The notes: generated by a model from the letters alone, not told the origin. Positions 23,144-40,871 are shown, numbered from the stretch's first letter. The stretch is DNA of 64,000 nt from Burkholderiales bacterium (GCA_050248795.1 JBFWRS010000001.1:11587-75586); one strand, 5' to 3'. Numbers and translations are program-made.

Positions 23144-23162
23144 CGCCTCTGGCACGCCACCG

Positions 23163-24607: not shown

Positions 24608-24692
24608 ACATTGAAACAGGGGCTGGCGCCCGGCCGCCGTTAGGCGTGAAATCCGGATTCGCCGGACGCCCCGGCAGACCGGAGACGCACAG

Positions 24693-25844
24693 ATGATCGA
24701 AGCCCCAGCCGACTTCCTCGACCCACGGCACTACGCCGGCGTGAGGAAGCCCCTGCTCGAAGCCGGGACGATGCCGGTCTGGACCTACACCTCGGACGCC
24801 TTCTACCGGCGCGAAGTCGAGCGCATCTTCATGAAGGTGTGGAACTTCCTCGGCCGCGCCGAGCAGGTGCCCAATCCCGGCGACTACTTTGCCGCCAACT
24901 TCGCCGGCGTGCCCATCATCGTGGTGCGCGGCGAGGACGGCCAGGTACGCGCCTTCGCCAACACCTGCAGGCATCGCGGCTCTGAACTGCTCGAAGGCAA
25001 GGGCAACTGCCGCGCCATCGTCTGCCCGTACCACAGCTGGACCTACGCGCTGGACGGGCGCCTGGTCGGCGCGCCGGAGATGGGCAAGACCGATGGCTTC
25101 AGGAACGAGGAGAACGGCCTCGTTCCGGTGCGCCTGGAAACCTGGGAAGGCTTCATCTTCGTCTGCTTCGATCCGAAGGCCGCACCGCTGTCTGCCTATC
25201 TGGGTGGCCTCGGCGACAAAGTGGCGCCCTACCGGCTTGGCGACATGGTGCTCGCGCGGCGTCGCGAGTACGTCATGGACTGCAACTGGAAGCTCTTCGT
25301 CGAGAACGCGAAAGAGTCGTACCACATCGCCACGGTGCACAAGAGCACCATCAACAAGTACGCGTCGGCCCGCACCGCCGGCTACTGGGTGGAGGAAGCA
25401 AAGGGCGAGTACTGCGTCACTTTCGCGCAGCACGAGGGCAGCATGGCGCTGCTGCAGGGCGACGCCGGCTTTCCGGTGATGGAGTCGCTCGCCGGGCTGC
25501 GCGAAGCGGGCGGCACCTGCGCGCCGCTGATCTATCCGAGCACCTACCTCGCCTGCACCATCGACTGCGCGTGGTACCTGGAACTGCACCCCATGGGCCC
25601 CGGCCGCACCAAGCTGATCCACGGCGCGCTGTTTCCGAAAGACCGCCTCGCGCGCGCGGATTTCGACGCCATCGCGGCCAACTACTACAAGCGCTGGGAC
25701 ATCACCATCGACGAGGACATCGTCGCCTCCGACCGCCAGCAGCGCGGCCTCAGTTCGCCCTTCGCCCTCCCCGGCCGCTTTTCGCACCGCGAGCCGCTGG
25801 TGCACGAAATAGACAACTGGGTCCTTAACCGCGTACTGGACTGA
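24693..25844 (+). CDS. Rieske [2Fe-2S] aromatic-ring-hydroxylating oxygenase, alpha subunit-like
   Basis: Rieske motif CRHRGSELL...CPYHSWTY and a C-terminal catalytic domain with NWKLFVEN...SYH. Confidence 0.85.
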   Translation: MIEAPADFLDPRHYAGVRKPLLEAGTMPVWTYTSDAFYRREVERIFMKVWNFLGRAEQVPNPGDYFAANFAGVPIIVVRGEDGQVRAFANTCRHRGSELLEGKGNCRAIVCPYHSWTYALDGRLVGAPEMGKTDGFRNEENGLVPVRLETWEGFIFVCFDPKAAPLSAYLGGLGDKVAPYRLGDMVLARRREYVMDCNWKLFVENAKESYHIATVHKSTINKYASARTAGYWVEEAKGEYCVTFAQHEGSMALLQGDAGFPVMESLAGLREAGGTCAPLIYPSTYLACTIDCAWYLELHPMGPGRTKLIHGALFPKDRLARADFDAIAANYYKRWDITIDEDIVASDRQQRGLSSPFALPGRFSHREPLVHEIDNWVLNRVLD

Positions 25845-25944
25845 ACGTGCCCCGGATTGCACGCGAAGTGACAAAACGCACCTGAAGCGGAACTGGTTCA
25901 CGGCTTGCGTCTTGCCAGATCGCCGCGCGAGGCGTTAGAAGGGG

Positions 25945-27525
25945 GTGCCACCACCCGACAAGGAGTCTCCGATCGACCAACGTGCGCAGCAGCAGGTGGG
26001 CGACCCGCTCAAGCAGGCGGCGCTGTACAGGACGCTGCTCGGCGTTGACGATGCGCTGATCGGCGCGCACGACGAGGTCGCGATGCTGCAGCGGGTGTGC
26101 GACACCGCGTTCGCCGCGCAAGCCTTTGCCGCCGCATGGGCCAGCCTGAGCCATCCCGCCAGCGGCATCTTCGAGCCTGTCGCGTTCCCCCACAGCCTGG
26201 CGCCGTTCCGGCAACTGGTGCGCTCGCTGCTGCTGGCGTCGAACAGCCGCGACTACTCGCCGACGCGGCACGCGCTGGATTCCGGCGAGGCAAAGTTCGT
26301 GGAGCGCATGCGCGAACTGCCGTGGCCAGCGGCAGCGAAGCCGCTGATCGCGATGTTCGGCATTGGCGGCGTGGCTGCTCTGCCATTGCGCCGCAACGGC
26401 AAGGTCGTCGGCGCGCTCACGCTGTACGTGGCCGAGCCGGACTATTTCGATGCCGACACCCGCCGCGCGCTGGTCTCGATCTCGCGGCGCATCGGGTCCG
26501 CGCTGGACGCGATAGACGCCAACCGCCAGCTGCATCAGGCACTGGCCCGGTTGAGCGCCCGCGAAGCGCAGTTCCGCGCGCTGGTCGAGCAGTCGCTCAC
26601 CGGCATCTACATGATCGAGGGCGCGCGTTTCAGCTATGTGAATCCGCGCCTGTGCGAAATCCTCGGCTATTCCGCCGAAGCGCTGCTGCAGATGGGACCG
26701 CACGATGTGACACTGGAGGAAGACCGCGCGCTGGTGGACACCCAACTGCGCCGCAGGCAGGCGGGCGAACTGGCCGCAGCGCGCTACGAGTTCCGCGTCC
26801 GGCGGCCGAGCGGAGAGATCCGCCACGTCGGCGTGCACGGCTCGGTAGCGGAGATCGACGGACGCCGCGTGATCATCGGCGTGCTGCAGGACATCACCGC
26901 CCGGGTGCAGGCGGAACTACTCGCCAACACGCAGATCGCCCGGCTTGGAAACGCCATGCGCGGTACTGTCGGCGCAGTGTCCCGCATGGTCGAGCTGCGC
27001 GACCCGTACACCGCCGGCCACGAAAGCCGCGTCGCGGCCTTGATGCGCGAGATCGGCCGCACGATGGACTACGCACCGGACCGGCGAGAAGGACTGGAAG
27101 TGATCGGCGGCCTGCACGACATCGGCAAGATCGCGGTGCCCGCCGAGATCCTGGTCAAGCCTTCGAAGCTCACTGGCGCCGAGTTCGACCTGATCAGGGA
27201 GCATCCGCTCCGCGGCTACGAGATCCTCGCCGGCCTGGAGTTTCCCTGGCCGGCGGCGCAAGCAACGCTGCAGCACCACGAACGCATCGACGGCAGCGGC
27301 TACCCGCATGGCCTGAAGGGGACAGACATCCTGCCCGAGGCGCGCGTGCTGGCGGTCGCGGATACGGTCGAGGCAATGGCCTCGCACCGCCCATATCGCG
27401 CCGGCCTTGGCATCGACGCCGCACTCGCCGAGATCGAGCGCGGCCGCGGCAGCGCCTACGATGCAGATGTCGCCGATGCCTGTCTTGCGCTGTTCGGCGA
27501 GAAGGGCTATCGACTCCCGGCCTGA
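25945..27525 (+). CDS. GAF-PAS-HD-GYP signalling protein (c-di-GMP phosphodiesterase type)
   Basis: PAS-like FRALVEQSLTGIYMIEG... then HD-GYP: HESRVAAL...GGLHDIGK...HHERIDGSGYPHGL. Confidence 0.8.
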   Translation: MPPPDKESPIDQRAQQQVGDPLKQAALYRTLLGVDDALIGAHDEVAMLQRVCDTAFAAQAFAAAWASLSHPASGIFEPVAFPHSLAPFRQLVRSLLLASNSRDYSPTRHALDSGEAKFVERMRELPWPAAAKPLIAMFGIGGVAALPLRRNGKVVGALTLYVAEPDYFDADTRRALVSISRRIGSALDAIDANRQLHQALARLSAREAQFRALVEQSLTGIYMIEGARFSYVNPRLCEILGYSAEALLQMGPHDVTLEEDRALVDTQLRRRQAGELAAARYEFRVRRPSGEIRHVGVHGSVAEIDGRRVIIGVLQDITARVQAELLANTQIARLGNAMRGTVGAVSRMVELRDPYTAGHESRVAALMREIGRTMDYAPDRREGLEVIGGLHDIGKIAVPAEILVKPSKLTGAEFDLIREHPLRGYEILAGLEFPWPAAQATLQHHERIDGSGYPHGLKGTDILPEARVLAVADTVEAMASHRPYRAGLGIDAALAEIERGRGSAYDADVADACLALFGEKGYRLPA

Positions 27526-28811
27526 GCCGACACATCGGCCCGGCTGGCCAGGATCGGCGGCGAGCCGTTCAACTTTTCGATGGCGAAGCCGGCCGCGGCC
27601 TGGTAGGTCTGCATGAACGCATTGCGCTCGGCGAGCGGGATGACGCTTTCGATGTCGTCGAACACGCCGCCGCAGCGCTCGTCCAGCAGGTTGAGCAGGC
27701 CGAACGGCCCCGCGCCGCGATTACGCAGCACCACGGCCGAGATGTCCTTGCACAGTTTCGCGTCGTAGGCCTGCAGCGCGGCGGGCGTGATGCCGTGCTC
27801 CAGCAGCGCCACGCCGAGCACCCGCGCGTCGATGACCGCCTGGCTGGCGCCGTTGGAGCCGGTGGGGTACATCACGTGGGCGGCGTCGCCGAGCAGCGCC
27901 ACGCGCCCGTCCACCCAGGTCGGCACCGGATCGCGGTCGATCATCGGATACTCGTACACGTCGGCGGCGCCGCGCAGCATGGCGGGAACGTCGAGCCAGT
28001 CGTATGTCCAGCGCTCGAAATGGTGGACAAAATCCTCGTGCCGCACCTTCTTGTTCCAGTCGCCCTCCGGCAGGCCGCCGGTGTTGTCGACCGTGATCTC
28101 GGCGATCCAGTTGATGTCGGAGAGGCCGCTCGCGGGATCGGCGCGCGAAATCGGATAGAACACCACACGATGCCGGTGGGTGCCGAAGCCGACGAACGAG
28201 GCGCCGGTGCGGATCGGCACGCCGCGGGTGACGCCGCGCCACATGATCGCGCCACCCCACTGGATCGGCGGCTGTTGCGGGTGCATCTGCGCGCGCACCG
28301 CGGAATGCAGCCCGTCTGCGCCGATCAGCAGCGACCCGGCGATTTCCTGCCGCTCTCCCGTGCGCGACTCCACCAGCGCGCTCACGCCCTTGCCGTCCGC
28401 GTGCTTGCGATAGCCGGTCACGCGCAGCCCCGTACGGATCGCGTCCGCGCCCAGCCTCTCGCGCGCCGCCTCGTAGAGCAGCATCTGCAACCCGCCGCGA
28501 TGCACCGAATACTGTGGCCAGTGGTAGCCCGCCTTGAGGCCGCGGGGCTCGGCGTAAACGTCCTTGCCGTTCAGCCCGACGAGCGCCCACTCCTGGGTCT
28601 GGATGCCGATGCCATCGAGCGCGTCCGCGCCGAACCCCATCTCGTACAGTTCGCGCACCGCGTTGGGCTGCACGTTGATGCCCACGCCCAGCGGCTTCAG
28701 CGTCGCTACCGACTCCAGCACCAGGCACGGCACGCCGATCTCGTGCAGCGTCAACGCGGTGGCGAGGCCGCCGATGCCGGCGCCGGCGACCAAGACAGGG
28801 GCTTGTCTCAT
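27507..28811 (-). CDS. FAD-dependent aromatic monooxygenase (salicylate/3-hydroxybenzoate hydroxylase-like)
   Basis: Starts at ATG 28811 (MRQAPVLVAGAGIGGLA). Contains LIGADGLHSAVR and LLGDAAHVMYPTGSNGASQA. Confidence 0.85.
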   Translation of the reverse strand: MRQAPVLVAGAGIGGLATALTLHEIGVPCLVLESVATLKPLGVGINVQPNAVRELYEMGFGADALDGIGIQTQEWALVGLNGKDVYAEPRGLKAGYHWPQYSVHRGGLQMLLYEAARERLGADAIRTGLRVTGYRKHADGKGVSALVESRTGERQEIAGSLLIGADGLHSAVRAQMHPQQPPIQWGGAIMWRGVTRGVPIRTGASFVGFGTHRHRVVFYPISRADPASGLSDINWIAEITVDNTGGLPEGDWNKKVRHEDFVHHFERWTYDWLDVPAMLRGAADVYEYPMIDRDPVPTWVDGRVALLGDAAHVMYPTGSNGASQAVIDARVLGVALLEHGITPAALQAYDAKLCKDISAVVLRNRGAGPFGLLNLLDERCGGVFDDIESVIPLAERNAFMQTYQAAAGFAIEKLNGSPPILASRADVSAQAGSR

Positions 28812-28922
28812 CGCCGGCAATGCGTGCGCCTGCGTACCCCGGGCTGCGCGCGGCGCGCGGATCGACGCGCCAGACGCGCAAGGGTGTTCATCGGGCTGCA
28901 GCAACGGATGGATGGCGCGGGC

Positions 28923-29822
28923 ATGTCGTTCGCGAAACCGGTGTTCATGAAGACCACAATATACGGCGAACTCGTGTCAACATCGCAGTCGAACATGACA
29001 CCGATCCGCGCTTGGCTGATGCAGGCCGCGCAGCGCATCGACGCAGCACTCGGCCCGGCGCGCGTCGCGCGCAGCGCGCTTCCGCCGGTGATGAATGACC
29101 CGGGCAAGGAAGGCGAGTTCTGCGCCGTGCAGCTCGACGACGGCAGCGTCGGCCTCGCGTTCGCGATCCTGCAGGACACGCTCCCGACGCTGCACGCGCG
29201 CCTGCCGCCCGGCGTGCTCGCCGGACGCTCCGCGCTGGAGCTCGTGCGCGGCTACGCGTCCGGCGACCTCGCCGCCCGCACCATCGGCCTCGCAACCATC
29301 AACGCCCTCGCCCGCCGCCTCTACGACCGCGCAGGCTTCGTCCCCGGGGATTCCGCCGACTCCTTCTCCGTCACGCTCGCCCGTGGCGACCGCCTCGGCC
29401 TCATCGGGCACTTCCGGCCGCTCATCAGGGAGGCCCGCACCCTCGGCATCCCGGTCACGGTCCTGGAGCTGCGCGCCGAACTCGTCCGCGAAGAACCCGG
29501 GCTCTCGGTCACCCTCGACCCCGCGCGGCTCGCCGCCTGCAACAAGATCGTCTCGACCAGCACCCTCCTGCTCAACGACAGCTTCGAAGCGGTGCGCGTG
29601 CTCTGGAAGAACGCCCAGGAGGTGGCCATCGTCGGCCCTTCCGCCTGCGGCCCGCCCGATCCGCTGTTCGCCGCCGGCGTCTCGGCCGTCGGAACTACCT
29701 GGGTCAGCAATGCCGAAGCGCTTCTCGCGCACGTCGTCGCGGGCGAGAAGTGGGGCGACTCGGCCCGGAAAGTGACTTTCACGCCAGCACGGTATCCGGG
29801 GCTGGACGCGCTGCTCCGCTAG
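28923..29822 (+). CDS. DUF364/DUF4213-type Rossmann-like protein (putative chelatase-like)
   Basis: Real 3' part of the 1241-aa track ORF. Contains LGLIGHFRPL...VTVLELR...IVSTSTLLLN...AIVGPSA...G..W. Start uncertain: 28923, 28947 or later. Confidence 0.55.
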   Translation: MSFAKPVFMKTTIYGELVSTSQSNMTPIRAWLMQAAQRIDAALGPARVARSALPPVMNDPGKEGEFCAVQLDDGSVGLAFAILQDTLPTLHARLPPGVLAGRSALELVRGYASGDLAARTIGLATINALARRLYDRAGFVPGDSADSFSVTLARGDRLGLIGHFRPLIREARTLGIPVTVLELRAELVREEPGLSVTLDPARLAACNKIVSTSTLLLNDSFEAVRVLWKNAQEVAIVGPSACGPPDPLFAAGVSAVGTTWVSNAEALLAHVVAGEKWGDSARKVTFTPARYPGLDALLR

Positions 29823-30039
29823 CTGCGCAAGCATCGGGGCGCGTCTCCCGGGAGATGCCCGCGGGTTCGCGCTACACGCTGGCGGCATCGCATGCATGCC
29901 GCATGGCGGTTCCCGCGCCTGCGGCGCCACCAGCGCATCGCCCGCATACAGGCGCGACTCGAGATTGGCGACGGTCCTGCCCCGATTCCGAGTGGCGAGG
30001 CATTAGAATGCAACGCCCGAACCTTGGAGGAGACCGTCC

Positions 30040-30594
30040 ATGCCAAGAGTCAGCGAAATCGACGACGACGCCGGGGACCTGGTTCTCGCCGAGTTGTTCG
30101 CCAGGGAGCGCGCTTCCTTTGGCGAACTGCTCAACTCGACGCGCGTGATGGCCCATTGCCCGGCGATCTTGCGCGCCGCCAAGCAGCTCGGCGCCGCTAT
30201 CGCGGAATCGGGCCGGCTGCCGAAGGGCCTGGTTGCGCTGGTGTCGCTGCGCGTCGCGGCGATCAACGGCTGCCCGTTCTGAGTCGACATCAACTCCGTC
30301 CGTGTGGCGGAGGTCGAGGGCGGCGCGGCGAAGCTCGCCGAGCTCCCCGCGTGGCGCGAGAGCGGTGCGTTCAGCGAGCTCGAGCGAGCGGCGCTCGAGT
30401 GCGCCGAGCGCATGACCTATACCGGCCAGCGGGTCGACGACGCGCTGTTCGCGCGCTTGCGAGCGCTGCTGGACGACCCGGAGATCGTCGAGCTGGCGGC
30501 CGCAATCGCGCTGGAGAATTTCCGCAGCAAGCTCAACTCCGCGCTAGGCGTGGAGGCGCAGGGCTTTTGCCTGCTGCCGCGGCGCGAGCGATGA
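30040..30594 (+). CDS. AhpD/carboxymuconolactone-decarboxylase family protein, probable selenoprotein (Sec at 30280-30282)
   Basis: Track ORFs 30040..30282 and 30304..30594 are in the same frame. The TGA replaces the second Cys of the family CxxC (INGCPF-TGA-VDIN), and the downstream part (AWRESGAFSELERAALECAERMT) continues the same fold. Confidence 0.7.
30284..30317 (+). promoter_or_regulatory. SECIS-like hairpin immediately 3' of the in-frame UGA
   Basis: UCGAC (30284-88) pairs with GUCGA (30313-17), followed by a 5-nt bulge. CUCCGUC (30294-300) pairs with GGCGGAG (30306-12). The loop CGUGU (30301-05) contains GU and starts 19 nt after the UGA. Confidence 0.6.
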
Positions 30595-31456
30595 GCCCGC
30601 GGAGGTGGCCGCTGTCCTGCGGCTGCTTGGCGACATGCCGCAGCCCGGTCAGCGCGGGCATGAGCAGCTTAGGATCGGCGTCCTCCGCGTAGACTGCGTA
30701 GGCTGGATAAAGGAACTCCGGGGCGCCCCGCACGAGCTTCAGCTTGCCCGTACGCAGATAGGGCGCGGCGGCGTGCTGGCGGAAGTAGCCTGAGCCGCCC
30801 GCGCGCAGGATGTACTGCAGGCCGAGCGGACCGAGATCCACGTAGGTGCCGGGACTGGAGAGTTCGGGGTAGGTGAGATTGTGCTGCGTGGCGAACTCCG
30901 GGCCCCAGTCCACGTAGATGTAGTCGCCGCCACGCACCGCCTTGCCGCGGGTGGTGACGAGGAGCAGCTTCTCTTTCATCAGCAGCTCCACTTTCAACCC
31001 GGGCCGCTGCTGCGGCGTGTACAGCACGCCGATATCGACGATGCCTGCCCCGACCTGGTCCATGAGCTGCTGCGGCAGCGCGACGCGGGCGCGCACGGCG
31101 AGCTCGGGCACCGAGCGCCTCATCCACACCATCCACTCGAGCAGCAGGGGATCCCACAGGCTGAGCTCGCCAGCCACTGCGATGACCGCGCGCCGCCCGT
31201 GCGGCACCGCGACCTGGTGGCGCGCGCGCTCCCAGAGCTGCACCAGCGAGGGGGCAAAGCGCAGGAACTCCTCGCCCGCCGCGGTGAGCGCAGCGCCGGA
31301 CTTGCTGCGCTCGAACAGCTTGCGCCCGAGAAGCGATTCGAGCTTGCGCACGCGCACGCTCACGGCAGTCTGCGTGACGTGCAGGCGCTCTGCGGCGCGG
31401 ATGAAGCTGCCGCTGCCGACGATCTCCAGAAAGGTGCGGGCGAGGGCGATCTCCAT
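30533..31456 (-). CDS. LysR-family transcriptional regulator
   Basis: N-terminal HTH MEIALARTFLEIVGSGSFIRAAERLHVTQTAVSVRVRKLE plus a LysR substrate-binding domain. Divergent from sodB. Confidence 0.9.
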   Translation of the reverse strand: MEIALARTFLEIVGSGSFIRAAERLHVTQTAVSVRVRKLESLLGRKLFERSKSGAALTAAGEEFLRFAPSLVQLWERARHQVAVPHGRRAVIAVAGELSLWDPLLLEWMVWMRRSVPELAVRARVALPQQLMDQVGAGIVDIGVLYTPQQRPGLKVELLMKEKLLLVTTRGKAVRGGDYIYVDWGPEFATQHNLTYPELSSPGTYVDLGPLGLQYILRAGGSGYFRQHAAAPYLRTGKLKLVRGAPEFLYPAYAVYAEDADPKLLMPALTGLRHVAKQPQDSGHLRGLIARAAAAGKSPAPPRLARS

Positions 31457-31579
31457 GCTGGTCCTCCGTTCGGACTTATATAACCGATAGTTTACTTAAA
31501 CAAGATTTAGTTTCGTTTTACTTCACAAAGCACTGAGGCCATGATCGACGGCACTAGAACCGACGCGCCTGGAGAGCCC

Positions 31580-32212
31580 ATGCCACTGACCTTGCCTTCA
31601 CTGCCCTACGAGCACGCCGCACTCGCGCCGTTCATGTCGGACGCAACGCTCAAGCTGCACCACGGCGTGCACCACGCCGGCTACGTGGATCGGGTGAACG
31701 CGCTCGCCCGCGGCACCGCGCTGGCGGACTTGCCGTTGCGCTCGATCGTCGAGCGCAGCGCGCGCGACCCGGCGGCGCGTGGCCTGTTCAACAGCGCGGC
31801 GCAGGCCTGGAATCACGACTTCTTCTGGCGCTCGCTGCGCCCCGCCGGGGAGCGGTCAGCGGTGCCTGCGCGCCTGGCGGCGCGCATCGCGAAGGATTTC
31901 GGCGGCCAGGAGCGTCTGATCGCGCTGCTCAAGAGCACGGCGCTCTCGGTCTTCGGCAGCGGCTGGGTGTGGCTGATCGAGCGCGACGGGCGCCTGCGCG
32001 TCGAAGCGACGGCGAACGCCGACGGCCCGATCGTGTCCGGCGGCGTACCCGGCCTCGTGATCGACGTCTGGGAGCACGCGTACTACCTCGACTACCAGGC
32101 TCGGCGCGCGGACTACGTCTCCGCGGTGATCGAGCACCTGCTCGACTGGGATTTCGCCGAGCGCAACCTGTTCGCCAACCAGCGGGAACGAGGCCATGAG
32201 GCCAACGTGTGA
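31580..32212 (+). CDS. sodB: Fe/Mn superoxide dismutase
   Basis: LPSLPYEHAALAPFMS...LHHGVHHAGYV...WNHDFFW...DVWEHAYYLDYQ. ATG at 31580. Confidence 0.9.
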   Translation: MPLTLPSLPYEHAALAPFMSDATLKLHHGVHHAGYVDRVNALARGTALADLPLRSIVERSARDPAARGLFNSAAQAWNHDFFWRSLRPAGERSAVPARLAARIAKDFGGQERLIALLKSTALSVFGSGWVWLIERDGRLRVEATANADGPIVSGGVPGLVIDVWEHAYYLDYQARRADYVSAVIEHLLDWDFAERNLFANQRERGHEANV

Positions 32213-32586
32213 AGCGTGGCTCGCCCAAGCGGGTACAGGTCAAGTCCGTCGCCGTGCGCGCGGAACCGCAGGACGGCATGCGGGTCCTGGTGGAGCGGCG
32301 CTGGCCGCGCGGGGCGTACCGACAGGGTGCAGCCATCGACCTGTGGCTGCGGGATGCCGCGCCGAGCCCCGCGCTGTCCCTGTGGTACCGCCGCTACCCG
32401 CGACGCTGGAAGCGCTTCCGCCATTGCTATTGGGCGGAGCTCGCGAGGCGGCCGCGCATCGTGCACCTGCTCGAGGATCTGCGGCGGCGCACTCCCGTGA
32501 CACTGCTATTTGGCGCGCAGGACGATTCGCGCAACCACGCGGAACTGCTGCGCGAGTTCATTGACCGTAAAGGAGATCTGCCATGA
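32209..32586 (+). CDS. DUF488 family protein
   Basis: VLVERRWPRG...DLWLRDAAPSPAL..W......W..F...Y..EL......LLFGA.D...NHA. GTGA overlap with the sodB stop. Confidence 0.7.
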   Translation: MKRGSPKRVQVKSVAVRAEPQDGMRVLVERRWPRGAYRQGAAIDLWLRDAAPSPALSLWYRRYPRRWKRFRHCYWAELARRPRIVHLLEDLRRRTPVTLLFGAQDDSRNHAELLREFIDRKGDLP

Positions 32587-33281
32587 AAGCCAGAGACATC
32601 ATGACTTCGCCGGTGATCACCGTCGCGCCCGAGACCACTGTGAAAGAGGTCGCGACGCTGCTCTACGAGTGCCGCATCGGCGCGCTGCCAGTCGTGCAGG
32701 ACGGAAGCGTGGTCGGGATCGTGAGCGAGTCAGACCTGCTACGCCGCCACGAGATCGGCACCGATCGCTTCGAGCGTGCCGGATCGTGGTGGCTGTGCCT
32801 GTTCGGGACGGACGGGTCCCTGCATGACTACGTGCGCTCCCATGCGCGCTTCGCGCGCGACGTGATGACACGCGGGGTGGTGACCGTCACGCCCGATACG
32901 TCGCTCGCGGAGACCGCGCAGTTGCTCGAAGGCCGCAGGATTGGTCGCGTGCCTGTCGTGGACGCCGGCAAGCTCATCGGCATTGTGAGCCGCGCAAACC
33001 TGGTCCAGGCGCTCGCGGCGCGCGCGCCCGCGCCCGCCGAGCCGCAAGCCGTGGATGACGAGAGCATCCGGCGCGCACTGCTCGAGGAGCTGGAGCGTCA
33101 GACGTGGTGGCGCATCGATCGCGCGGCCGTGCTGGTCACCAACGGCGTGGTGCAATTCCAGGGCATGGTTGACACCGACGCCGGCCGTCCGGCCGCGCGC
33201 GTGGCGGCCGAGAATATCCCCGGCGTGCGCGCCGTGGAGGATCACCGTTTCCTCAGCTCGAACGCGCCCACGATGACATGA
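32583..33281 (+). CDS. CBS-pair plus BON domain protein
   Basis: Two CBS motifs (ARDIMTSPVITV...GALPVV, ARDVMTRGVVTV...GRVPVV) and a C-terminal BON-like VVQFQGMVD...AAENIPGVRAVED. ATGA overlap upstream. Confidence 0.8.
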   Translation: MKARDIMTSPVITVAPETTVKEVATLLYECRIGALPVVQDGSVVGIVSESDLLRRHEIGTDRFERAGSWWLCLFGTDGSLHDYVRSHARFARDVMTRGVVTVTPDTSLAETAQLLEGRRIGRVPVVDAGKLIGIVSRANLVQALAARAPAPAEPQAVDDESIRRALLEELERQTWWRIDRAAVLVTNGVVQFQGMVDTDAGRPAARVAAENIPGVRAVEDHRFLSSNAPTMT

Positions 33282-33324
33282 GCGCGAGCGGCCTTTCCTC
33301 AACGTCATCCCCAAGGAGACAGTC

Positions 33325-33897
33325 ATGCATTCGTTCCTGACCATCGCCGATCCCCACGCAGCGCGCAGGATGTTTCTTGCGCGCTCGGGCCTCGTCCTTT
33401 CGGGCGCGGCCGTCGCGCTGCTCGCCGGCCGCGACGCGCTCGCCGCGCGCAGCGGCGCCGGCCGCGCCGACGACGTGCGAATCCTGAACACCGCGCTCGG
33501 CGCGGAGCACGAGGCGGTGGCCGCCTACCAGCTCGGCGCCGAGAGCGGCCTGCTGGAGAAGCCGGCGCTCTCGCTCGCGCTGCAATTCCAGGGCCACCAC
33601 AAGGAGCACGTCGAGCTGCTCGCGCAGACCGTGCGCAAGCTCGGCGGCAGCGCGGTGTCGGCGCGCTCCAAGTACGATTTCCCCGCGCACCAGCTGAAGA
33701 CCCAGGCCGATGTGCTGCGCTTCGCGGCGCAGCTCGAGCGCGGCGCGGTAAGCGCGTACCTCGGCGCGGTTCCCCTGTTCGGCAACCGCGACCTCGCCAA
33801 GGCCGCGGCGAGCATCCTCGGCGACGAAGCGATGCACTGGGCGGTCCTGCGCAACGCGCTAGGCGAGGACCCTGTTCCGGTCGCGTTCGTGTCGTGA
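33325..33897 (+). CDS. Tat-signal ferritin-like domain protein
   Basis: Twin-arginine-like ARRMFLARSGLVLSGAAVALLAG, then ferritin-like helices LNTALGAEHEAVAAY, QGHHKEHV, ERGAVSAY and GDEAMHWAVL. Confidence 0.65.
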   Translation: MHSFLTIADPHAARRMFLARSGLVLSGAAVALLAGRDALAARSGAGRADDVRILNTALGAEHEAVAAYQLGAESGLLEKPALSLALQFQGHHKEHVELLAQTVRKLGGSAVSARSKYDFPAHQLKTQADVLRFAAQLERGAVSAYLGAVPLFGNRDLAKAAASILGDEAMHWAVLRNALGEDPVPVAFVS

Positions 33898-34277
33898 CTG
33901 CGGCGCCGCTTGCGCTCGCCGTGGTCCTGGCGCTCGCCGCGCTGCCCGCGGCGGGGGACGAGGCGCGCGGCGAGCAGGTGTACGCGCGCTGCCTCGCCTG
34001 CCACGCGCTCGCCTATGACCGGGTCGGGCCGCGCCACTGCGGCCTGATCGGCCGGCGCGCCGGCACGGTCCCGGGGTTCGCGTACTCGGAGGCGATGCGG
34101 CAGTCGGGAATCGTGTGGAGCGCGAAGACGATGGATCGCTTCCTGGCCGATCCGTCGGGTGTGGTACCCGGTACGACGATGACCTACGCGGGAGTCCCGG
34201 ATGCACGCGATCGCGCCGATCTGATCGCGTACCTTGCGCGCGCGGGTCGTTCCCCCGAATGCAGCGCGTCGCGATGA
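33894..34277 (+). CDS. class I c-type cytochrome
   Basis: Signal peptide, heme site CLACH, distal Met region GTTMTY. GTGA overlap with the ferritin-like gene. Confidence 0.8.
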   Translation: MTAAPLALAVVLALAALPAAGDEARGEQVYARCLACHALAYDRVGPRHCGLIGRRAGTVPGFAYSEAMRQSGIVWSAKTMDRFLADPSGVVPGTTMTYAGVPDARDRADLIAYLARAGRSPECSASR

Positions 34278-34289
34278 TGGTGCCGTGAC

Positions 34290-34643
34290 GTGATCCACAT
34301 CAAGCGCACCTACGAGCCGCGGGAGAAATCTGACGGGCGCCGCATTCTGGTGGAGCGGCTGTGGCCGCGCGGCATGAGGAAGGAGGCCCTTGCGGCCGAC
34401 GCCTGGGCGAAGGACGTCGCTCCCAGCACCAAGCTGCGCAAGTGGTTCGGGCACCGGGGGGAGCGATGGGCCGAGTTCAGGCGCCGATACCGTACCGAGC
34501 TGGACACGGTTCCCGCCGCGTGGGCGCCGATTCTGGAGGCGGCTGCGCGGGGACGCGTGACGCTGCTCTACAGCGCGCGCGATACCGTTCACAATTGCGC
34601 CGTCGTGCTGCAGGAGTACCTCGGCGAAAGGGCGAAGCGATGA
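34290..34643 (+). CDS. DUF488 family protein (second copy)
   Basis: GTG start. IHIKRTYEP....DG.RILVERLWPRG...AWAKDVAPS..LRKWF.H....W.EF...Y..EL. Confidence 0.75.
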   Translation: MIHIKRTYEPREKSDGRRILVERLWPRGMRKEALAADAWAKDVAPSTKLRKWFGHRGERWAEFRRRYRTELDTVPAAWAPILEAAARGRVTLLYSARDTVHNCAVVLQEYLGERAKR

Positions 34644-34951
34644 CCACGCACCCGGCTGACGTTTCGATCGTCGGCGGCGCACCGAAGCCTGCTGCCCCGA
34701 GCCTTCTCGAGAAGGTTCTGCGCAGCCTCTCCGTGATCACCATGCTGCTGACCGTGCCGCAGGTGCTGGCGGTGTGGGTCGGACCGCATCCCGGCGGCGT
34801 CTCGCTCGTATCCTGGGTCGCGTACCTGGTCGCCGCGTGCCTGTGGTTCGTCTACGGGCTGCAGAGGCGCGACAAGACGATCTACCTCGCCTGCGTCGGC
34901 TGGGTCGTGCTGGATGCGGCGATCGTGGCCGGCGTGATCGTGCGCACCTGA
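34640..34951 (+). CDS. small 3-TM membrane protein, PQ-loop/SemiSWEET-like
   Basis: 103 aa with three hydrophobic segments. The first carries the motif LLTVPQVLAVW. ATGA overlap upstream. Confidence 0.45.
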   Translation: MTTHPADVSIVGGAPKPAAPSLLEKVLRSLSVITMLLTVPQVLAVWVGPHPGGVSLVSWVAYLVAACLWFVYGLQRRDKTIYLACVGWVVLDAAIVAGVIVRT

Positions 34952-34991
34952 AACCGGCGCAACTTCTGGCTTGGCGCGAGGTCATTCAAGT

Positions 34992-35663
34992 ATGGTAAGT
35001 GCTTCTATCGCCTTAGAGGAAGACCCGTCGCGCACTCCAGTGATGCTGTCGCTCCCCGTGCGTGCGCGGCTGCTCGACGCCCTCCTAGCGGGAGGAATCG
35101 GCCTGGCGCACGAATGCGGCGGCAAGCTGGCCTGCGCGACCTGCAGGGTCATCGTGCGCGAAGGCAGCGCCCATCTGGAGCCGGCGAGCGAAGACGAGCT
35201 GGACATGCTGGACGCCGCGGGCGTTCTGGCTCCGCAAGCACGCCTCGCATGCCAGGCGATCGGCCTTGGCGGCGACGTGGTGATCGAGATCCCGCTGATC
35301 GAAGCGGCGCCGCCCGTCGCGATCGCCGCGGGACCCGCGCTTCCCGTTGCGCTCACCGAGCACGCGGCGAGGCACATCGCGTCGCAGCTCGCGAGCCGGC
35401 CGGCTGGGGCCGCCGTGCGCCTCGGCGTCTCGCCCGCGGGCTGCTCGGGTTTCCGCTACCGCCTCGAGTTCGCCGACGCGATCCGCGAGAACGACGTGGT
35501 CTTCGAGAGCCGCGGCGTGCGCATCGCGGTCGAGTCCTCCAGCCTGCCGCACGTGCAGGGGACGAGGCTCGACCTGGTGCGGGAAGGGCTCGCCCGGCGC
35601 CTTCGCTTCGACAACCCGAACGTGCGCAGCACCTGCGGGTGCGGCGAGAGCTTCGGGGTATGA
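34992..35663 (+). CDS. fusion protein: [2Fe-2S] ferredoxin (Fdx/adrenodoxin type) N-terminal domain + IscA/HesB A-type carrier C-terminal domain
   Basis: The N-terminal half has ECGGKLACATCRV...RLACQ (4 Cys ligand pattern of Fdx-type ferredoxins). The C-terminal half has LTEHAARHI...GCSGFRY...CGCGESFGV. Compare iscA and fdx in the same window. Start is ATG 34992 or TTG 34971. Confidence 0.75.
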   Translation: MVSASIALEEDPSRTPVMLSLPVRARLLDALLAGGIGLAHECGGKLACATCRVIVREGSAHLEPASEDELDMLDAAGVLAPQARLACQAIGLGGDVVIEIPLIEAAPPVAIAAGPALPVALTEHAARHIASQLASRPAGAAVRLGVSPAGCSGFRYRLEFADAIRENDVVFESRGVRIAVESSSLPHVQGTRLDLVREGLARRLRFDNPNVRSTCGCGESFGV

Positions 35664-35664
35664 C

Positions 35665-35877
35665 ATGCAGGACGTCGAGCGCTTTCGCATCGGATTCCTC
35701 GTGACGCGCGACGGCGAGGCGGCGGCTGCGGCCTGGGTGCGGCGCACGCTCGCGATCTATCGGCGCGCGGTTCTCGACCCGAAGCATTTCGCGAGCAAGC
35801 CCGACTACCGGCACCTGTTCCTCGCCTCCTGCGCGGAGTTCAGGCGCTGGCTCGCCAAGCGGACGCTCCCGTGCTGA
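35665..35877 (+). CDS. small hypothetical protein
   Basis: 70 aa, starting 1 nt after the fusion-gene stop. Real 3' part of track ORF 35347..35877. No family recognised. Confidence 0.4.
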   Translation: MQDVERFRIGFLVTRDGEAAAAAWVRRTLAIYRRAVLDPKHFASKPDYRHLFLASCAEFRRWLAKRTLPC

Positions 35878-36026
35878 GCCAGGACGAAAAGCTGGACGAG
35901 GCGCTGAAGGACACGTTTCCTGCGAGCGACGCCTTCTACCTCGCACCGGATGACACGCGCGCAGCCGTGAGCGGGCAAGCGAGTACCCCGGGGCCATGCA
36001 TCGCACCCGCCGACCAATCAGGATGA
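35871..36026 (+). CDS. very small hypothetical protein (51 aa) with DEALKDTFPASDA motif
   Basis: Not in the track because it is under 60 aa. The GTG start overlaps the upstream stop by 7 nt. The motif resembles small conserved proteobacterial proteins that I recall only loosely. Confidence 0.3.
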   Translation: MLSQDEKLDEALKDTFPASDAFYLAPDDTRAAVSGQASTPGPCIAPADQSG

Positions 36027-36121
36027 AGCAGTCGCCGGACTCCGGTTTTGACGTAGCTCAATGTACCCTCGCGTTCACGGGATACCATTGCGAAACAGCG
36101 TTTTCAGCATAGGAGGATCCC

Positions 36122-36574
36122 GTGACAGTCGCCATCCCGCTCCCTCTCAAGAAGGAGCACAACGAACTCCACGAGGAGCTCGTACGTGCTACGAAGGAGC
36201 CCGGCGCGGTAGGCGAGGCCGCGAAGAAGGTCGCGCGCCTCCTCCATCCCCACTTCGTATCCGAGGAAGAATATGCCCTTCCGCCGCTCGGGCTGCTGGC
36301 GGCCGTCGCGCGCGGCGAGACGCCGGCTGAAGCCGGGCAAGGGCTTGCTATGGCCGAACGGCTTCGCAAGGAGTTGCCGCGGATGCTCCAGGAACACGGC
36401 GCAATCGTCGAGGCGCTCGCGGAGTTGAGCGAGGCCGCGCAGCGCGAGAGCAAAGCCTGGGTCGTGCGCTTCGCGGAGAATCTCACGCTGCATGCCCAGA
36501 CCGAGGAGGAAGTCCTCTACCCAGCGACGCTGGTTCTCGGAGAGATCCTTCGGCGCCGAGGCGTCAAAGGCTGA
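36122..36574 (+). CDS. hemerythrin-like (HHE-type) domain protein
   Basis: LKKEHNELHEEL...LLHPHFVSEEEYALPPLG...LQEHGAIVEAL...LHAQTEEEVLYPA. Confidence 0.6.
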   Translation: MTVAIPLPLKKEHNELHEELVRATKEPGAVGEAAKKVARLLHPHFVSEEEYALPPLGLLAAVARGETPAEAGQGLAMAERLRKELPRMLQEHGAIVEALAELSEAAQRESKAWVVRFAENLTLHAQTEEEVLYPATLVLGEILRRRGVKG

Positions 36575-36877
36575 CTGCGTCTTTCGGTGCCCCGGCAGGC
36601 GCCGCGGTGTCACATCGTTCCGTCGGGTGATCGCGGGGTCAGGTCTCGATTCACGGGCGAGGAGCCCGGCAAGCTGTGTCGCCTACCGCATACGCCGCCT
36701 GGCGCTCGGCCGCCCGCTCGCGCGCCGACCTGCGCGTGGTGGCGACAAACGAAGACCTACTTGCCCGTGGAGGAGCACCGGACACGCAATCCGGGCACCT
36801 GAGCGTCGCCACGCTCCCCCCCCGGGCGCATGTCGGCGATAATCGCCGAGGTCAGGGGCGTAGGCTTCCCCGGTGCA

Positions 36878-36937
36878 GGTGGCAGTGTAGGTCGTCGCGA
36901 CATCGAGCCTCCCGAGGTGTCGACCTACACCGCCACC
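36878..36937. repeat. 17-bp near-perfect inverted repeat with 26-nt spacer
   Basis: GGTGGCAGTGTAGGTCG (36878-36894) versus the reverse complement of CGACCTACACCGCCACC (36921-36937) matches at 16 of 17 positions. The right arm contains the 12-mer GACCTACACCGC. Confidence 0.85.
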
Positions 36938-37134
36938 GACACTGAAGAGCCCGACAAGGACTTGCAAGGTCTTGCCCAGACATGCCCGGATAAGCGGTCC
37001 GTGAAGGCCTGATTCCTTTGGAACGACAAAACCTCAAAGCGCAGAACGGCAGCGCCGACAAGACCCTGGGTCAGGTCGGAATCTCTGCCCACACTCCGGT
37101 GATGCAGCAGCGTTTTTTCCCTATGAGAATTGGC

Positions 37135-37170
37135 GTAGGTTTGGGTGACCTACACCGCGACCTACACCGC
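37135..37170. repeat. short hairpin plus perfect tandem 12-mer (GACCTACACCGC x2)
   Basis: GTAGGT (37135-40) N7 ACCTAC (37148-53), then GACCTACACCGC at 37147-37158 and again at 37159-37170. Confidence 0.85.
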
Positions 37171-37323
37171 TAATACTTGTCCAGTCTTGAACATCACGCG
37201 GTAACCATGCCTCCGCGCAGCGGCCGCAATCGGCCAGAAGCAGTCGTTCGCTGCCAAAATGATGCTTTGCGTCAGCACTTTCACCTCGTGCGCTTTGTTT
37301 ACGCAGGCCCGGATTTCGTAGGC

Positions 37324-39340
37324 CTACACCTTAAGTAGTTCATCGCATTGCCGGGTGATGTGTTCCGGCACTGAATCGAATCGGCGCGGATTCAACTGCA
37401 TGATGTATTCGTTCTCCACGTGGTAAGTCTCGTTGATATATTTCTTCACCAAGTCGTTATCCGGCACATCTGGTGTAACGATTCGGAATAGCTGCAACTT
37501 CTCATACCGATTCTTCGTCGCTTTATAGGCCGCGAGCATCTGTGCCTCATCTTTGACTCGGGCCAAGAGCTGAGCGTAGTCGAACGTCGACAACTTTTCC
37601 TTAATCCGCGCGGTGGCCTTTTCAATTTCCGCCGCCGTCATCGCTGTCCCGTCAGCTCTGGTCGGTAGTTCGCGCTTATGTAGAAGGCTCGACAGTAGGT
37701 TGTACTCATCTCCCTTATCGTCAGCGATTTCGTAGTTTCGCCGCAGATACACCAATTGGATGATCGGTTCGTTTACGGCCTGGAGATTCTCGCTGCAGAT
37801 CTGGCCGAACGACACGATATCGACCTTCGTAACAGGTAGCTCGGCTATGTGCCCGCTCTGCGCGGTTAGAAACGACGCGAGCGGCATGGGCTGGAAGCTG
37901 GCTCCGACGGTCTTGACTAGATCAATTACCGGCTCAATGTCGTGTGTAAGCATCAAGGCAGTGCGACCCTGAAAGCTATCCTTGCCTCGGAACAGCGTAG
38001 TCAAGATCGCGAATTTCTTGGTCTTATCAAATGACGAAATCGGATCGTCTAGAACGACTAAGTCGGGATTCTTCGTAAGGCAGTCGTACATGAAGAGGAC
38101 GAGCGCGAAAGCGTTCTTTTCGCCATAGCTGAGATGTGCCCCGCCGTTTTCTATGTAGTTGGCGAAATCCTCATGCTTGAGCTTCATCTTGTACGTCACA
38201 CCATCCAACTGAATATCGACCGCGTATCGGTAGCCAGCATTTCGCAGAAAGGTGTTTATCTCGGCTTTGTACTTGCCGATTGTTTTCTCAATAGCATGCT
38301 TCTGTTTGTTCACCTCCCCTTGTAGCTGTCCGGCCTTTGCCAGGACCTTATCCAAGCATTTGTTCACCTCATCCACTATCTTGCGGGTCGATTCCGCGTT
38401 GACGTGATGGAGAAGCGAGAGGTCTATTTTCATGTCGGAAAGAATCTGTTGAGCCTCTTGGACTTTCTCTATCTCACGCAAATAGAAGAACGAAATGCCC
38501 TTGGCACTACCTAGTTTTCCGCGCAGCGTATCCGTCTGGGCCTTGATCTCCTTCAGGTAGTTGATGGCCTCTGCGCTTGGTGCCTGGTGATGCCGCAAGA
38601 TCTCTTCTAGCTTCTTCAAAGTTTCGGCGCTGAAGTAAGTTCCTAAGCGCGAGACAATGCCCTGCAGCGCCACGAGATGTTCTATTGCTTTAGCGTCATA
38701 CTCGTCAGCGACGGCGAGGATGGTGTCCTTCTTATCGGCGGTAGGAGCCGTACAGAACGGACAGTTGTCCGACAGACCTAAGAACTCCTTACCTTGAAGC
38801 TGCCACTTAATCCACTGTATATTTGTGGGACTCTTAATGAAGTCGCTATAGCCCGTTAGCTTCTCTGGGACGTGCTCTAGTTTGTTTCCCTTAGCTAGTC
38901 CACGCGCAATTCGTCCGGACTTCGCATAGCCAGATTGCGACTTGCCAAAGCTCTCACTTAATGCAAGCAAGTCATTTATTACGCGATCAATGTCTTCATT
39001 CTTGCGAAAGATCTGCTGGATATCTTCAACCATTCCTTCGATCTCTTTCATCTTCGTGTCGTAATCGGCGTTGCGGACGAAGATGTCGAAGCTGTTCTTT
39101 ACGAGTTCATCCGGTTGAAAGACGAACTGGCTTATATAGCCTTCGTTGAACGTCGCCACCGACTTGAAGCCATCCGCCCCTTGTACTTGGGGTTGTTTGT
39201 CTGCTGATTTGTCGCCGCGAAATTTGAACGGCTGAAGTTCGGCCAGCTTCGCGCCTCCGCCTTCGGCGTTCAAGGCGATCGCTTTGGCAATCGTGCTCTT
39301 TCCCACACCATTCGGGCCGTACTTGACATTAAGTCGCCCC
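37324..39340 (-). pseudogene. 5'-truncated AAA_13-type (RloC/PrrC-like, Rad50-like) ABC ATPase, cut by the IS3 element
   Basis: In-frame codons GRLNVKYGPNGVGKST (Walker A) run directly into the IS end at 39341 with no N-terminus left. A CPFC zinc-hook-like motif sits in a long coiled-coil insert. Also present: LSYGEKNAF signature, LVVLDDPISSFD Walker B and MLTHD H-loop. GC is clearly lower than the surroundings. Confidence 0.75.
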
Positions 39341-39406
39341 TGAGCTGCCCGGCTTTTTCTGTACCAGGTTGAGTGTTGTAGTGTTCAACGTGGAAGGAGA
39401 AGGCGC

Positions 39407-39685
39407 ATGGCGAATAAAAAGTATAGCCCGGAGCAGGCGGTGGCGAGGCTTCGGCAGATCGAAGTGCTGCAGGCAGGGGGCAAGTCGATTCCGGCGGCAT
39501 GCAAGGAAGCGGGGATCACGGATGTCACGTACTACCGCTGGAGGAAGGAGTACGGCGGGCTGAAGGTGGACCAGGCCAGGAAGTTGAAGGACCTGGAGCG
39601 CGAGAACCAGCGGCTTAAAAAGTTGGTGGCGGACCTGTCGCTGGAGAAGGCGATCCTGAAGGACGTGGCCGAGGGAAACTTCTGA
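39407..39685 (+). CDS. IS3 transposase OrfA (HTH + leucine zipper)
   Basis: 92 aa with ...[57 protein letters not shown]. Confidence 0.9.
39673..39679 (+). promoter_or_regulatory. -1 programmed ribosomal frameshift heptamer G GGA AAC
   Basis: X XXY YYZ pattern in the orfA frame, 4 nt before the orfA stop. The orfB frame is open from here. Confidence 0.6.
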
Positions 39686-40545
39686 GCCCCGAGCGGCGGC
39701 GCAAAGCCGTCGCGCATGCTCGGGGCAAGTACGGTGTGTCGGAGAGGAAGGCCTGTGCGGTGCTCGCGCAGCCCAGAGGCACGCAGCGCTACGTGCCGAC
39801 GGTGCGAGCCGACGAGGACCTGCTCACGCAGGCGATCGTGCGCTTGGCGTGCCAGTACGGGCGCTACGGCTACCGGATGGTCGCCGGGATGCTCAGGTAC
39901 GGCGGCTGGCGGGTGGGCGAGGAGCGGGTACACCGGATCTGGAGGAAGGAAGGGCTGAAGGTGCCCAGGAAGCAAAAGCCCCGCGGGCGGCTGTGGCTGA
40001 ACGATGGCAGCTGCATACGGCTGAGAGCCGAGCGGGCGAACCACGTGTGGAGCTACGACTTCGTGACGACCTGGACGCACGACGGGCGGGTGCTGAGGCT
40101 CTTGACGCTGATCGACGAGTACACGCGCGAGTGCCTGGCGATCATGGTGGCAAGGAGCATCGGCGCGCAGCAGGTGATCGAGCTGCTGGCCGAGGTGATG
40201 TTGCGCAGGGGAATCCCGGAACACATCCGCTCGGACAACGGGCCGGAGTTCACCGCCAAGGTGCTGCGGCAGTGGTTGGGGCAGATCGGCGCGAACACGC
40301 TTTACATCGCGCCGGGCAGCCCGTGGGAGAACGGCTACTGCGAGAGCTTCAACGGCACGCTGAGGGATGAGCTGCTGAACGGGGAGATCTTCTACAGCCT
40401 TAACGAGGCGCGGATCGTGATCGAGCGCTGGCGGCGCGAGTACAACGAGGTGAGGCCGCACAGCTCGCTGGGCTACAGGCCGCCGGCGCCGGCGGCCTGT
40501 AGCCACTACCCCGCTGCGCTCGATGAGCCGCAGGCTATGCAGTAA
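39673..40545 (+). CDS. IS3 transposase OrfB frame (DDE integrase core), expressed as an OrfAB fusion by -1 frameshift
   Basis: The -1 frame reads ...[30 protein letters not shown]... Later come WSYDFV (D), IRSDNGPEF (D) and [16 protein letters not shown] (E). Confidence 0.85.
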
Positions 40546-40583
40546 AGTATCAATGGGACTGGTACAAAAAACCTAGCAGTTCA

Positions 40584-40871
40584 GATCTGCAAGCTGCCCT
40601 TGCGCTCCGGGATGTAGACCTGCGACACCAGGTCGTCCGGCGCGACCTTGGCGCCGGTTGCTGCGAGCGTCGTGGCGAGCGCCGCCGGTCCGCATTGATA
40701 CTCCACCTGGGGGAAAAACGGCACCTCCGTAAGCTCGACGCGCTCCGGCAGGCCTTGCGGCAAGCCCTCGCGCAACTCCGCGGTTTGGGGCCAAAGGCTG
40801 GCGCAACCAGACACCGCGAGTGCACAGAGACAAGCAAAAGCAATTGTTCCGAGCCTGGATTTCATACGCAC
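40584..40871 (-). pseudogene. 3'-truncated C39-like (PA2778-family) cysteine peptidase lipoprotein, N-terminal 96 codons only
   Basis: Lipobox ALAVSGCAS and the peptidase motif VPFFPQVEYQCGPAALATTL. The reading frame ends in a TGA supplied by the IS right end (40581-83). Confidence 0.6.

Follow-up and report, generated by a model that had tools for sequence, protein, structure and literature searches.

Positions 36575-37323 of a 64,000-nucleotide stretch of DNA from a Burkholderiales bacterium (hereafter the window) had been described in an initial annotation as a gene-free, repeat-packed boundary between core genome and island. Within this region, segment 36678-37170 is here read, with a probability of about 0.8, as the decayed attP-like joint of two islands standing in tandem at the 5' end of mutS, whereby its 12-mer repeats most likely represent integrase arm-type sites. 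From left to right, the joint would consist of the defunct 5' part of a tyrosine integrase gene from the upstream island, the P arm of the same island, in which two repeat doublets (A and B) surround the start codon of the integrase and an island-supplied mutS promoter and leader are found, a 12-bp crossover core (GTGATGCAGCAG) and finally the P' arm of the downstream island, in which a tandem doublet (C) follows 36 nt from the core. Both islands belong to the mutS-targeting family reported by Chu et al. (2017), the target of which is formed by the HTPMMQQ codons of mutS. This reading is carried by observed homology, breakpoints, gene fragments and architecture.

The 12-mer GACCTACACCGC occurs in three perfect copies on the plus strand (36922-36933, 37147-37158 and 37159-37170), the last two being in tandem, and no further perfect copy was found in the window, while a unit with one mismatch (GACCTACACTGC) locates to the minus strand at 36882-36893. 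These copies are exactly where the initial annotation had placed them. When up to two mismatches were allowed, 20 matches were counted in the window as compared to 5.7 +/- 2.3 in shuffled sequences. Read in register, the 12-mers form three tandem doublets of 12-bp units with a 12-bp period and the consensus GACCTACACYGN (the units of the putative arm repeat are also written GACCTACAC, a shorter form of the motif being ACCTACAC), each of which is regarded as a putative arm-type integrase site: doublet A (GACCTACACTGC and CACCTGCACCGG; 36870-36893, minus strand), doublet B (GACCTACACCGC and CACCGACACTGA; 36922-36945, plus strand) and doublet C (two copies of GACCTACACCGC; 37147-37170, plus strand). 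The inverted repeat noted earlier (16 of 17 positions matching, 26-nt spacer) is real and even longer than described, as a repeat search identified arms of 35 nt each at 36860-36894 and 36921-36955 which are 26 nt apart. Likewise, the fall in GC content towards the neighboring ATPase gene was reproduced, with values dropping from 0.66 to 0.54 across the region. Neither a tRNA gene nor an Rfam match was found in the window, a promoter and terminator scan of the region returned no promoter-like or terminator-like site, and a Pfam search with two open reading frames (ORFs) of the gap (36683-37033, minus strand, and 36631-36945, plus strand) gave no match.

A pseudogene fragment of a P4-like tyrosine integrase was identified at 36678-36903 (minus strand) by tblastn and by its DNA match to the related locus L188. 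The N-terminus of the L188 integrase aligns over 61 amino acids with 36903-36721 (minus strand; 70% identity, E = 2e-21), and this part of the fragment contains an in-frame TAG stop codon at 36757-36759. A separate, weak 46-nt DNA match (36723-36678, E = 3e-6) lies further along the integrase gene of L188, which implies an internal deletion. The integrase ATG (36901-36903) and a GGGAGG ribosome-binding site are located inside the 26-nt spacer of the inverted repeat and, as a consequence, doublet A overlaps integrase codons 4-11 while doublet B lies just 5' of the ribosome-binding site. The arm-binding domain Arm-DNA-bind_3 (PF13356) was detected in the L188 integrase fragment (E = 1.7e-13), in the proteins P0123 and P0142 and in most of the 95 integrase homologues, for which PF13356, PF22022 and PF00589 were recorded as domains. 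In six loci retrieved by integrase protein alone (L217-L222), the integrase gene is found 195-270 bp from mutS in divergent orientation; the window fragment resides 195 bp from the core, and its homologues in L188 and L217-L222 lie divergently within about 300 bp of the mutS start. Truncated integrase fragments like that of the window recur in L167 and L221. Next to this, HipA/HipB toxin-antitoxin pairs were seen to directly adjoin the integrase gene or its remnant in L167, L221 and L082, which are differing mutS islands.

Metagenome contigs were scanned with the doublet consensus, and inspection of the flanks left two classes of true homologues. Class 1 loci (L188, L121 and L138) match window positions 36720-37110, the aligned 393 nt being 77% identical in L188 and L121. 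An opposite-strand gene of these loci, the product of which starts like a P4-type integrase, precedes the matched stretch, and the MAFFT alignment documents that the latter runs directly into the mutS ORF (ATGATGCAGCAG joined to TACCTGCGCATCAAG, i.e., MMQQYLRIK...). Class 2 loci (L134 and about 25 others) match positions 37089-37170, comprising ATGATGCARCAG, then CGTTTTTTCYCTATGARRA and, 36 nt past the core, GACCTACACYGCGACCTACACYG; their similarity to the window, as determined by BLAST, always ends at 37169-37171, which is the end of doublet C. Around 19 different left flanks end in ...HTP-ATGATGCARCAG and all are joined there to the same right-hand arm. Among island copies of the L134 type, similarity mostly stops at -48/-49 from doublet C, which corresponds to the core start, with some copies sharing an extra stretch upstream of it. 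At the window core, the similarity to integrase-mutS loci ends (37110) and the similarity to island left ends begins (37099). In addition, complete islands flanked by direct repeats of the core and followed by mutS on the right were found in L107 (7.9 kb), L109 (10.4 kb), L179 (4 kb) and L221 (4.2 kb). Since both the breakpoints and the island-bounding direct repeats fall into ATGATGCARCAG, this family consensus, which represents the MMQQ codons of mutS, is identified as the crossover region. The window core (GTGATGCAGCAG, 37099-37110, plus strand) deviates from it by one mismatch, and no second core is present in the window. The side of doublets A and B, next to the integrase gene, represents the right end of an island (P arm) and the side of doublet C a left end (P' arm).

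The core is preceded by an island-borne replacement mutS leader (37018-37110, plus strand), which is predicted to begin with a TTG start codon, continues to ...NGSADKTLGQVGISAHTPVMQQ and ends in HTPVMQQ (37090-37110). Homologous leaders are joined to full-length mutS in L188, L121, L138, L217, L220, L221 and L222, the fusions in L188, L121, L217 and L220 being in frame. A replacement translation start and promoter for mutS is hence recognizable at the sequence level, the window leader itself being orphaned. As a by-product of the joint, a 51-codon chimeric ORF (37018-37173, TTG start) connects the mutS leader (...AHTPVMQQ) with a read-through of the P' arm, in which the two perfect 12-mers encode DLHRDLHR and a TAA stop codon (37171-37173) directly follows doublet C; a gene caller could report this ORF as a hypothetical protein. 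The earlier statement that no convincing ORF exists was therefore partly right, with the 61-codon integrase pseudogene fragment and the chimeric ORF having gone unrecognized.

Comparison of the arms between elements revealed which parts of the architecture are shared. Doublet B is found at the same aligned position in all of the nine P arms, four of which were found by protein only (L217, L220, L221 and L222), with unit variants such as ACCTATAC, while doublet A possesses two units in three of these arms, one unit in three and none in the remaining three. In 11 distinct elements, L221 and L223 among them, the P' arm carries two to three tandem 12-mer units that follow the core at a distance of 36-45 nt, and the DNA past these units is unrelated between elements. 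The P' arm spacer of the window (37111-37146, plus strand) contains a conserved block, CGTTTTTTCCCTATGAGAA, which was kept in 10 of 11 different P' arms. The loci obtained independently of the motif are L217-L223 only, of which the first six were retrieved by integrase protein and L223 by the synteny of its core genes. Within this set, L221 possesses doublets on both arms, the spacers of which are unrelated to those of the window, and the N-terminal part of its integrase shows 55% identity to the query; L223 contributes a P' arm doublet at a locus found without the motif. Essentially, both arms of diverged elements carry a motif that is distinct from the core and keeps a conserved distance to it, with many P' arms having been retrieved by means of this motif. 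Because of these properties and the presence of a recombinase with an arm-binding domain, the 12-mers are considered putative arm-type sites. One of the earlier suggestions, recombinase arm sites marking an island end, fits these data well, as the 12-mers flank a recombination core beside a fragment of an integrase whose homologues carry the arm domain, and the remark that no known att site could be matched is superseded by the match to the att sites of mutS-targeting elements. Two weaker features described along with the repeats fared differently: the GTAGGT-N7-ACCTAC hairpin (37135-37153) is present in the window but not conserved in homologous arms, and conservation is likewise lacking for the weak copy near 36859.

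Further motifs accompany the doublets. A tandem palindromic motif, GACAAGGACTTGCAAGGTCTTGCC (36953-36976), is conserved in the P-arm alignment and may serve as an accessory-factor site or as a promoter element. A second motif, CAAGRNYKKRCAA, which may likewise be an accessory-factor site, is found beside doublets B and C (36955-36967, plus strand; 36962-36974, minus strand; 37177-37189, minus strand), these positions making up three of its four window-wide matches. The copy next to doublet C (37177-37189, minus strand) reads CAAGACTGGACAA and resembles CAAGAATGGACAA, a similarity of uncertain significance. CAAGAATGGACAA, being related to the second motif, resides 3' of the doublet in the P' arms of L134, L147 and L223, where its orientation is opposite to that in the window, and CAAGAATGGACAA-like motifs are common to the window and one P' arm subfamily only.

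Concerning the specificity of the search patterns, the doublet consensus was found to also match unrelated coding DNA, namely the codons for G-TYTATLTVTD of PKD-like repeats (e.g., L105, L117 and L151), in which the matches are about 265 nt apart. The 23-nt GC-rich pattern alone is not specific, as it matches metagenome and viral loci (L080-L216). Most of the more than 120 metagenome matches and all 17 viral matches to GACCTACACYGCSACCNNCACYG were discarded as the flanks of homologous loci were absent, and the pattern matches in L132 and L215 were discarded as non-coding repeats of another kind.

The position of the joint within the genome was derived from a relative, GCA_964612335.1 (L223), which matches window positions 13260-28817 with 91.5% DNA identity. 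Synteny ends at 28817, at the start of a gene for an FAD-dependent oxidoreductase. About 100 nt past its last syntenic gene, the relative possesses an orphan native mutS start (MESPPSHTPVMQQ) and a P' arm with GACCTACACCGCGACCTATACCGG, followed by an island which differs from that of the window and encodes AlpA and a 2095-aa NACHT protein; the attL is intact (L223 positions 15558-15734). The break of synteny together with this intact attL places the native mutS site, and hence the true border between core genome and island, at about 28817, so that region 36575-37323, which had been taken for that border, becomes a joint between two islands. All DNA from 28818 rightwards would accordingly be island DNA. 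The upstream island remnant, termed E1, extends from 28818 to 37098, with its left limit set by the end of synteny and its attL missing; besides the integrase fragment it contains genes for LysR, SOD, DUF488, CBS/BON, ferritin-like, Fe-S and hemerythrin proteins, a cargo that comprises oxidative-stress genes. As the orphan mutS start and the P' arm are missing at 28817, E1 is considered to be truncated. The downstream island, E2, starts at 37111 and contains, in this order, the PDC-S06 ATPase with an IS3 element, copper resistance genes, an ABC-2 transporter, FtsH, a mer operon and further cargo; it runs beyond the end of the window and through a further 9.6 kb or so (L224), where genes for DUF6692, a Na/H antiporter, PGM, PGK, PLD and Usp are found. 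Similar joints between islands were identified in L167 and L109. With an integrase gene that is truncated and interrupted by a stop codon, a core mismatch, a mutS gene that is not adjacent and an upstream island whose left end is lost, the site is a scar.

Based on this architecture, a course of events in a live element can be suggested. The N-terminal Arm-DNA-binding domains of the integrase would occupy the 12-mers, and integrase molecules bridging arms and core would build up an intasome, within which strand exchange would take place in ATGATGCARCAG. As doublets A and B overlap the start region of the integrase gene, their occupation may in addition allow the integrase to regulate its own synthesis. 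At the joint described here, excision to a circular form with restoration of attB is unlikely, because the integrase is a pseudogene.

Several observations weigh against this interpretation. Most metagenome loci were found by means of the doublet pattern itself, and conservation of the doublet is there given by construction. The islands in L107, L109 and L179 are bounded by cores and carry P' doublets, yet they possess neither an integrase nor P-arm 12-mers; islands of this type fit a simple two-arm model least comfortably. No second core was found in the window and no orphan host mutS start at the left end of E1, where the break falls at 28817, and neither mutS nor an intact integrase gene is present in the window or in the roughly 9.6 kb past its right end (L224). 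As the distal attR is not seen, the tandem arrangement rests on the synteny of the relative. Finally, the window's own integrase fragment yielded no Pfam match, being too short and too decayed to score.

Those islands that retain P' doublets but have no integrase are also part of what speaks for a different occupant of the 12-mers, as the att joint could be exactly as described while its repeats are bound by a directionality factor (an Xis- or AlpA-like excisionase) or by a repressor of the divergent integrase and mutS promoters. Tandem direct repeats beside the core are also typical of the Xis sites in lambda attP, a Phage_AlpA gene resides in the island of the relative L223, and doublets A and B overlap the integrase start region. 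However, both arms carry copies of one motif, and these are found in either orientation, which fits integrase arm sites but not the Xis sites of lambda, which are confined to one arm, and the integrase, as the sole protein always associated with the sites, possesses a dedicated arm-binding domain. Moreover, small islands such as L221, which encodes the integrase, HipBA and a further protein of 150 aa without a domain match, have no recognizable excisionase gene and yet carry doublets on both arms. Binding by a protein other than the integrase is hence judged rather unlikely.

Much less probable still is that the A/B inverted repeat and the hairpin at 37135-37153 form a structured RNA, be it a mutS leader element or an antisense RNA to the integrase gene. 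The A/B region does fold strongly (-44 to -50 kcal/mol, z = -5.5 to -6.2 as compared to shuffled sequences), as does segment 37125-37175, which contains the hairpin (z = -4.5), but the folding of the equivalents in L217 and L221 does not exceed that of shuffled sequences (z of about 0), six of the nine homologous P arms have a single unit of arm A or none whereas B is retained, and the hairpin, for its part not conserved, is missing from several homologous arms. No Rfam family was found at threshold, the matches being spurious ones to plant miRNAs at about 20 bits, and no promoter-like or terminator-like site was found in the region. The structured RNA considered in the initial annotation is not supported. 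The other proposals made there, iterons and transposase ends, are covered by the remaining alternative, in which the repeats represent transposase terminal repeats (Tn7-, IS21- or Mu-like), replication iterons or a dispersed repetitive extragenic palindromic (REP)-like element. Clustered short repeats at the edge of foreign DNA do resemble transposon ends, and an IS3 element is located 2 kb away. However, apart from the IS3 element, the own inverted repeats of which are unrelated, no DDE transposase was seen close to the repeats, and the element boundaries consist of 12 bp of mutS codons, conserved and repeated in direct orientation, rather than of inverted termini with target-site duplications. 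No rep gene was found among the genes examined, and no iteron array is present. Perfect copies of the motif are confined to one cluster in 64 kb, and no ACCTAYAC unit is found in the roughly 9.6 kb beyond the right end (L224); with the motif restricted to one locus in this range, it is not REP-like. This group of explanations is accordingly considered extremely improbable.

Beyond the favored decayed joint of two mutS islands, a more general idea can be put forward, namely that core, spacer and tandem-12-mer P' arm together form a portable landing pad that is shared by many unrelated cargo modules. Satellite or mobilizable islands would then be inserted, excised or stacked at mutS by an integrase that acts in trans from a resident mutS element. 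L107, L109 and L179, which keep P' doublets without an integrase or P-arm sites, would be islands of this type, and the scar in the window may be another such case. This proposal is speculative and regarded as unlikely. If true, repeated accretion and decay would swap the promoter and leader of mutS, which could alter the expression of mismatch repair and thereby the mutation rate.

Some properties of the related islands and of the cargo of E2 are reported here in their own right. L107, L109, L082 and L179 contain islands of 4-10 kb that are delimited at mutS by direct repeats of ATGATGCARCAG. They retain the 12-mer doublets of the P' arm, but an integrase is missing and no 12-mers are found at their mutS-proximal side. 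The cargo of one type (L107 and L109) comprises an SDR dehydrogenase, an RND efflux pump, TetR and HipBA, while that of L179 contains a two-component system. In L107 and L109, about 350 nt of the DNA preceding the left core, with the first part of a HigA-like gene, are repeated at the mutS-proximal end. In E2, positions 41349-64000 encode two CusF-like proteins (with a 143-nt direct repeat at 40937 and 41353), a YkuD transpeptidase, a cupredoxin, a multicopper oxidase, an OEP/HlyD/ABC-2 exporter, an FtsH-like protease, MerR, MerT, MerP, a MerA-like reductase, VKOR and DUF305. Taken with the genes of L224, this cargo resembles that of stress-tolerance islands.

The gene to the right of the joint forms part of the E2 cargo. 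It is an ORF of 660 aa (37324-39306, minus strand) with the Pfam domain AAA_13, the homologues of which have about 690 aa, and it gave an end-to-end PADLOC match to the candidate defence system PDC-S06 (E = 2.7e-261). The respective ATPase module was delimited to 37229-39340 (minus strand), as exactly this span is 95% identical at the DNA level to L003, a contig on which a 97% identical ATPase (P0001) is encoded in another context. L003 shares only 39340-37229 with the window, the alignment collapsing about 60 nt before doublet C, and the 12-mer motif is absent from L003-L005, which represent the closest ATPase homologues in other contexts. Given that these contigs lack the repeats and that the similarity to L003 ends at 37229, the repeats do not belong to the PDC-S06 ATPase module, and the earlier link between the two was dropped. 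The weak repeat copy at 37322-37330 also occurs in L003, as GTGTAAGCC, on a contig without att arms, and is therefore regarded as coincidental ATPase-module DNA. At its 5' end, the ATPase gene is cut by an IS3-family insertion sequence (39341-40584, plus strand; Pfam rve, rve_3 and HTH_21; terminal inverted repeats TGAGCTGCCCGGCTTTTTCTGTACCAG and TGAACTGCTAGGTTTTTTGTACCAG), whereby the first 59 nt (about 20 codons) of the 97% identical homologue are gone. No target-site duplication of the IS3 element is visible, which suggests an IS-mediated deletion, and the candidate defence ATPase gene may hence be dead.

To the left, a gene for a hemerythrin-domain protein ends at 36574. A function of the repeats as a regulatory element of this gene found no support, as its 72 relatives from bacteria and archaea (at most 61% identical) are devoid of the motif. 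Within the region, 52 nt (36692-36743) are 84-89% identical to a gene for an aepY-like thiamine-diphosphate enzyme on four Burkholderia chromids, and 45 nt of this stretch are 85% identical in Mycetohabitans. An origin of this stretch as a gene remnant was rejected since tblastn returned E = 0.06 only; the match is probably a chance similarity of GC-rich DNA.

With this reading, two att arms with the crossover core between them, an orphan mutS leader and an integrase pseudogene can be annotated in a formerly unexplained stretch, while the true border between core genome and island moves leftwards by about 8 kb. In this Burkholderiales genome, the stacked islands at the mutS hotspot would hold a cargo of at least 45 kb with functions in stress tolerance, metal resistance and defence. 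For the mutS-targeting family, a testable att architecture is obtained, consisting of the 12-bp core ATGATGCARCAG and GACCTACACYGN repeats on both arms, and an automated search for island ends and scars could be built on it. The site as such is interpretable and fairly ordinary: it belongs to a known family and represents no new kind of system, the att architecture being a small new descriptive detail.

Among known systems, the lambda attP is the classical example of a site with arm-type repeats, its integrase binding to P1, P2 and P'1-P'3 by an N-terminal arm-binding domain, while its Xis sites are found on one arm only. The joint resembles the attP sites of lambda and P4 in that a short motif distinct from the core occurs on both arms, its copies being arranged in tandem on P' while those on P vary in orientation, and in that the integrase family carries an N-terminal arm-binding domain (PF13356). 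It differs from them in its 12-bp units with a 12-bp period and in its P-arm sites straddling the integrase start codon, with integrase binding being putative here and accessory sites for IHF and Xis not having been identified. Elements that exploit the 5' end of a housekeeping gene are also familiar, as SXT/R391 conjugative elements reside at the 5' end of prfC and further islands and prophages at that of dusA. Here, too, the target gene receives a replacement 5' end and promoter from the element, but target gene and integrase clade are different; conjugation genes were not found among the genes examined, which covered about 28.8-46 kb of the window, its larger ORFs between 44.9 kb and the right end, and the roughly 9.6 kb beyond.

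The closest likeness is that to the mobile elements within mutS which were reported for Vibrio and hundreds of Beta- and Gammaproteobacteria, all of them located in the HTPMMQQ motif (Chu et al., mBio 2017, PMC5296598). In this family the integrase gene adjoins mutS, the element brings a new mutS promoter and start, and excision was demonstrated for V. splendidus 12B01, E. coli 536, P. putida F1 and B. multivorans CF2 (PMC5296598); arm-type sites are not mentioned in the text of that paper. The elements described here agree with those of Chu et al. in their insertion inside the HTPMMQQ codons at the mutS start, in an integrase gene within about 300 bp of mutS, as seen in L188 and L217-L222, in the new promoter and start together with an orphaned start left at the far end, the latter as seen in the relative L223, in their hosts (Beta- and Gammaproteobacteria there, a Burkholderiales metagenome-assembled genome here) and in their variable size and cargo (4 kb to more than 150 kb in the paper, 4-10 kb and more than 36 kb in this work). 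The likeness concerns target site and layout. In contrast to those elements, the window contains a scar with a dead integrase gene and no adjacent mutS, and it represents a joint between two islands, i.e., a product of tandem accretion, rather than a simple attL or attR.

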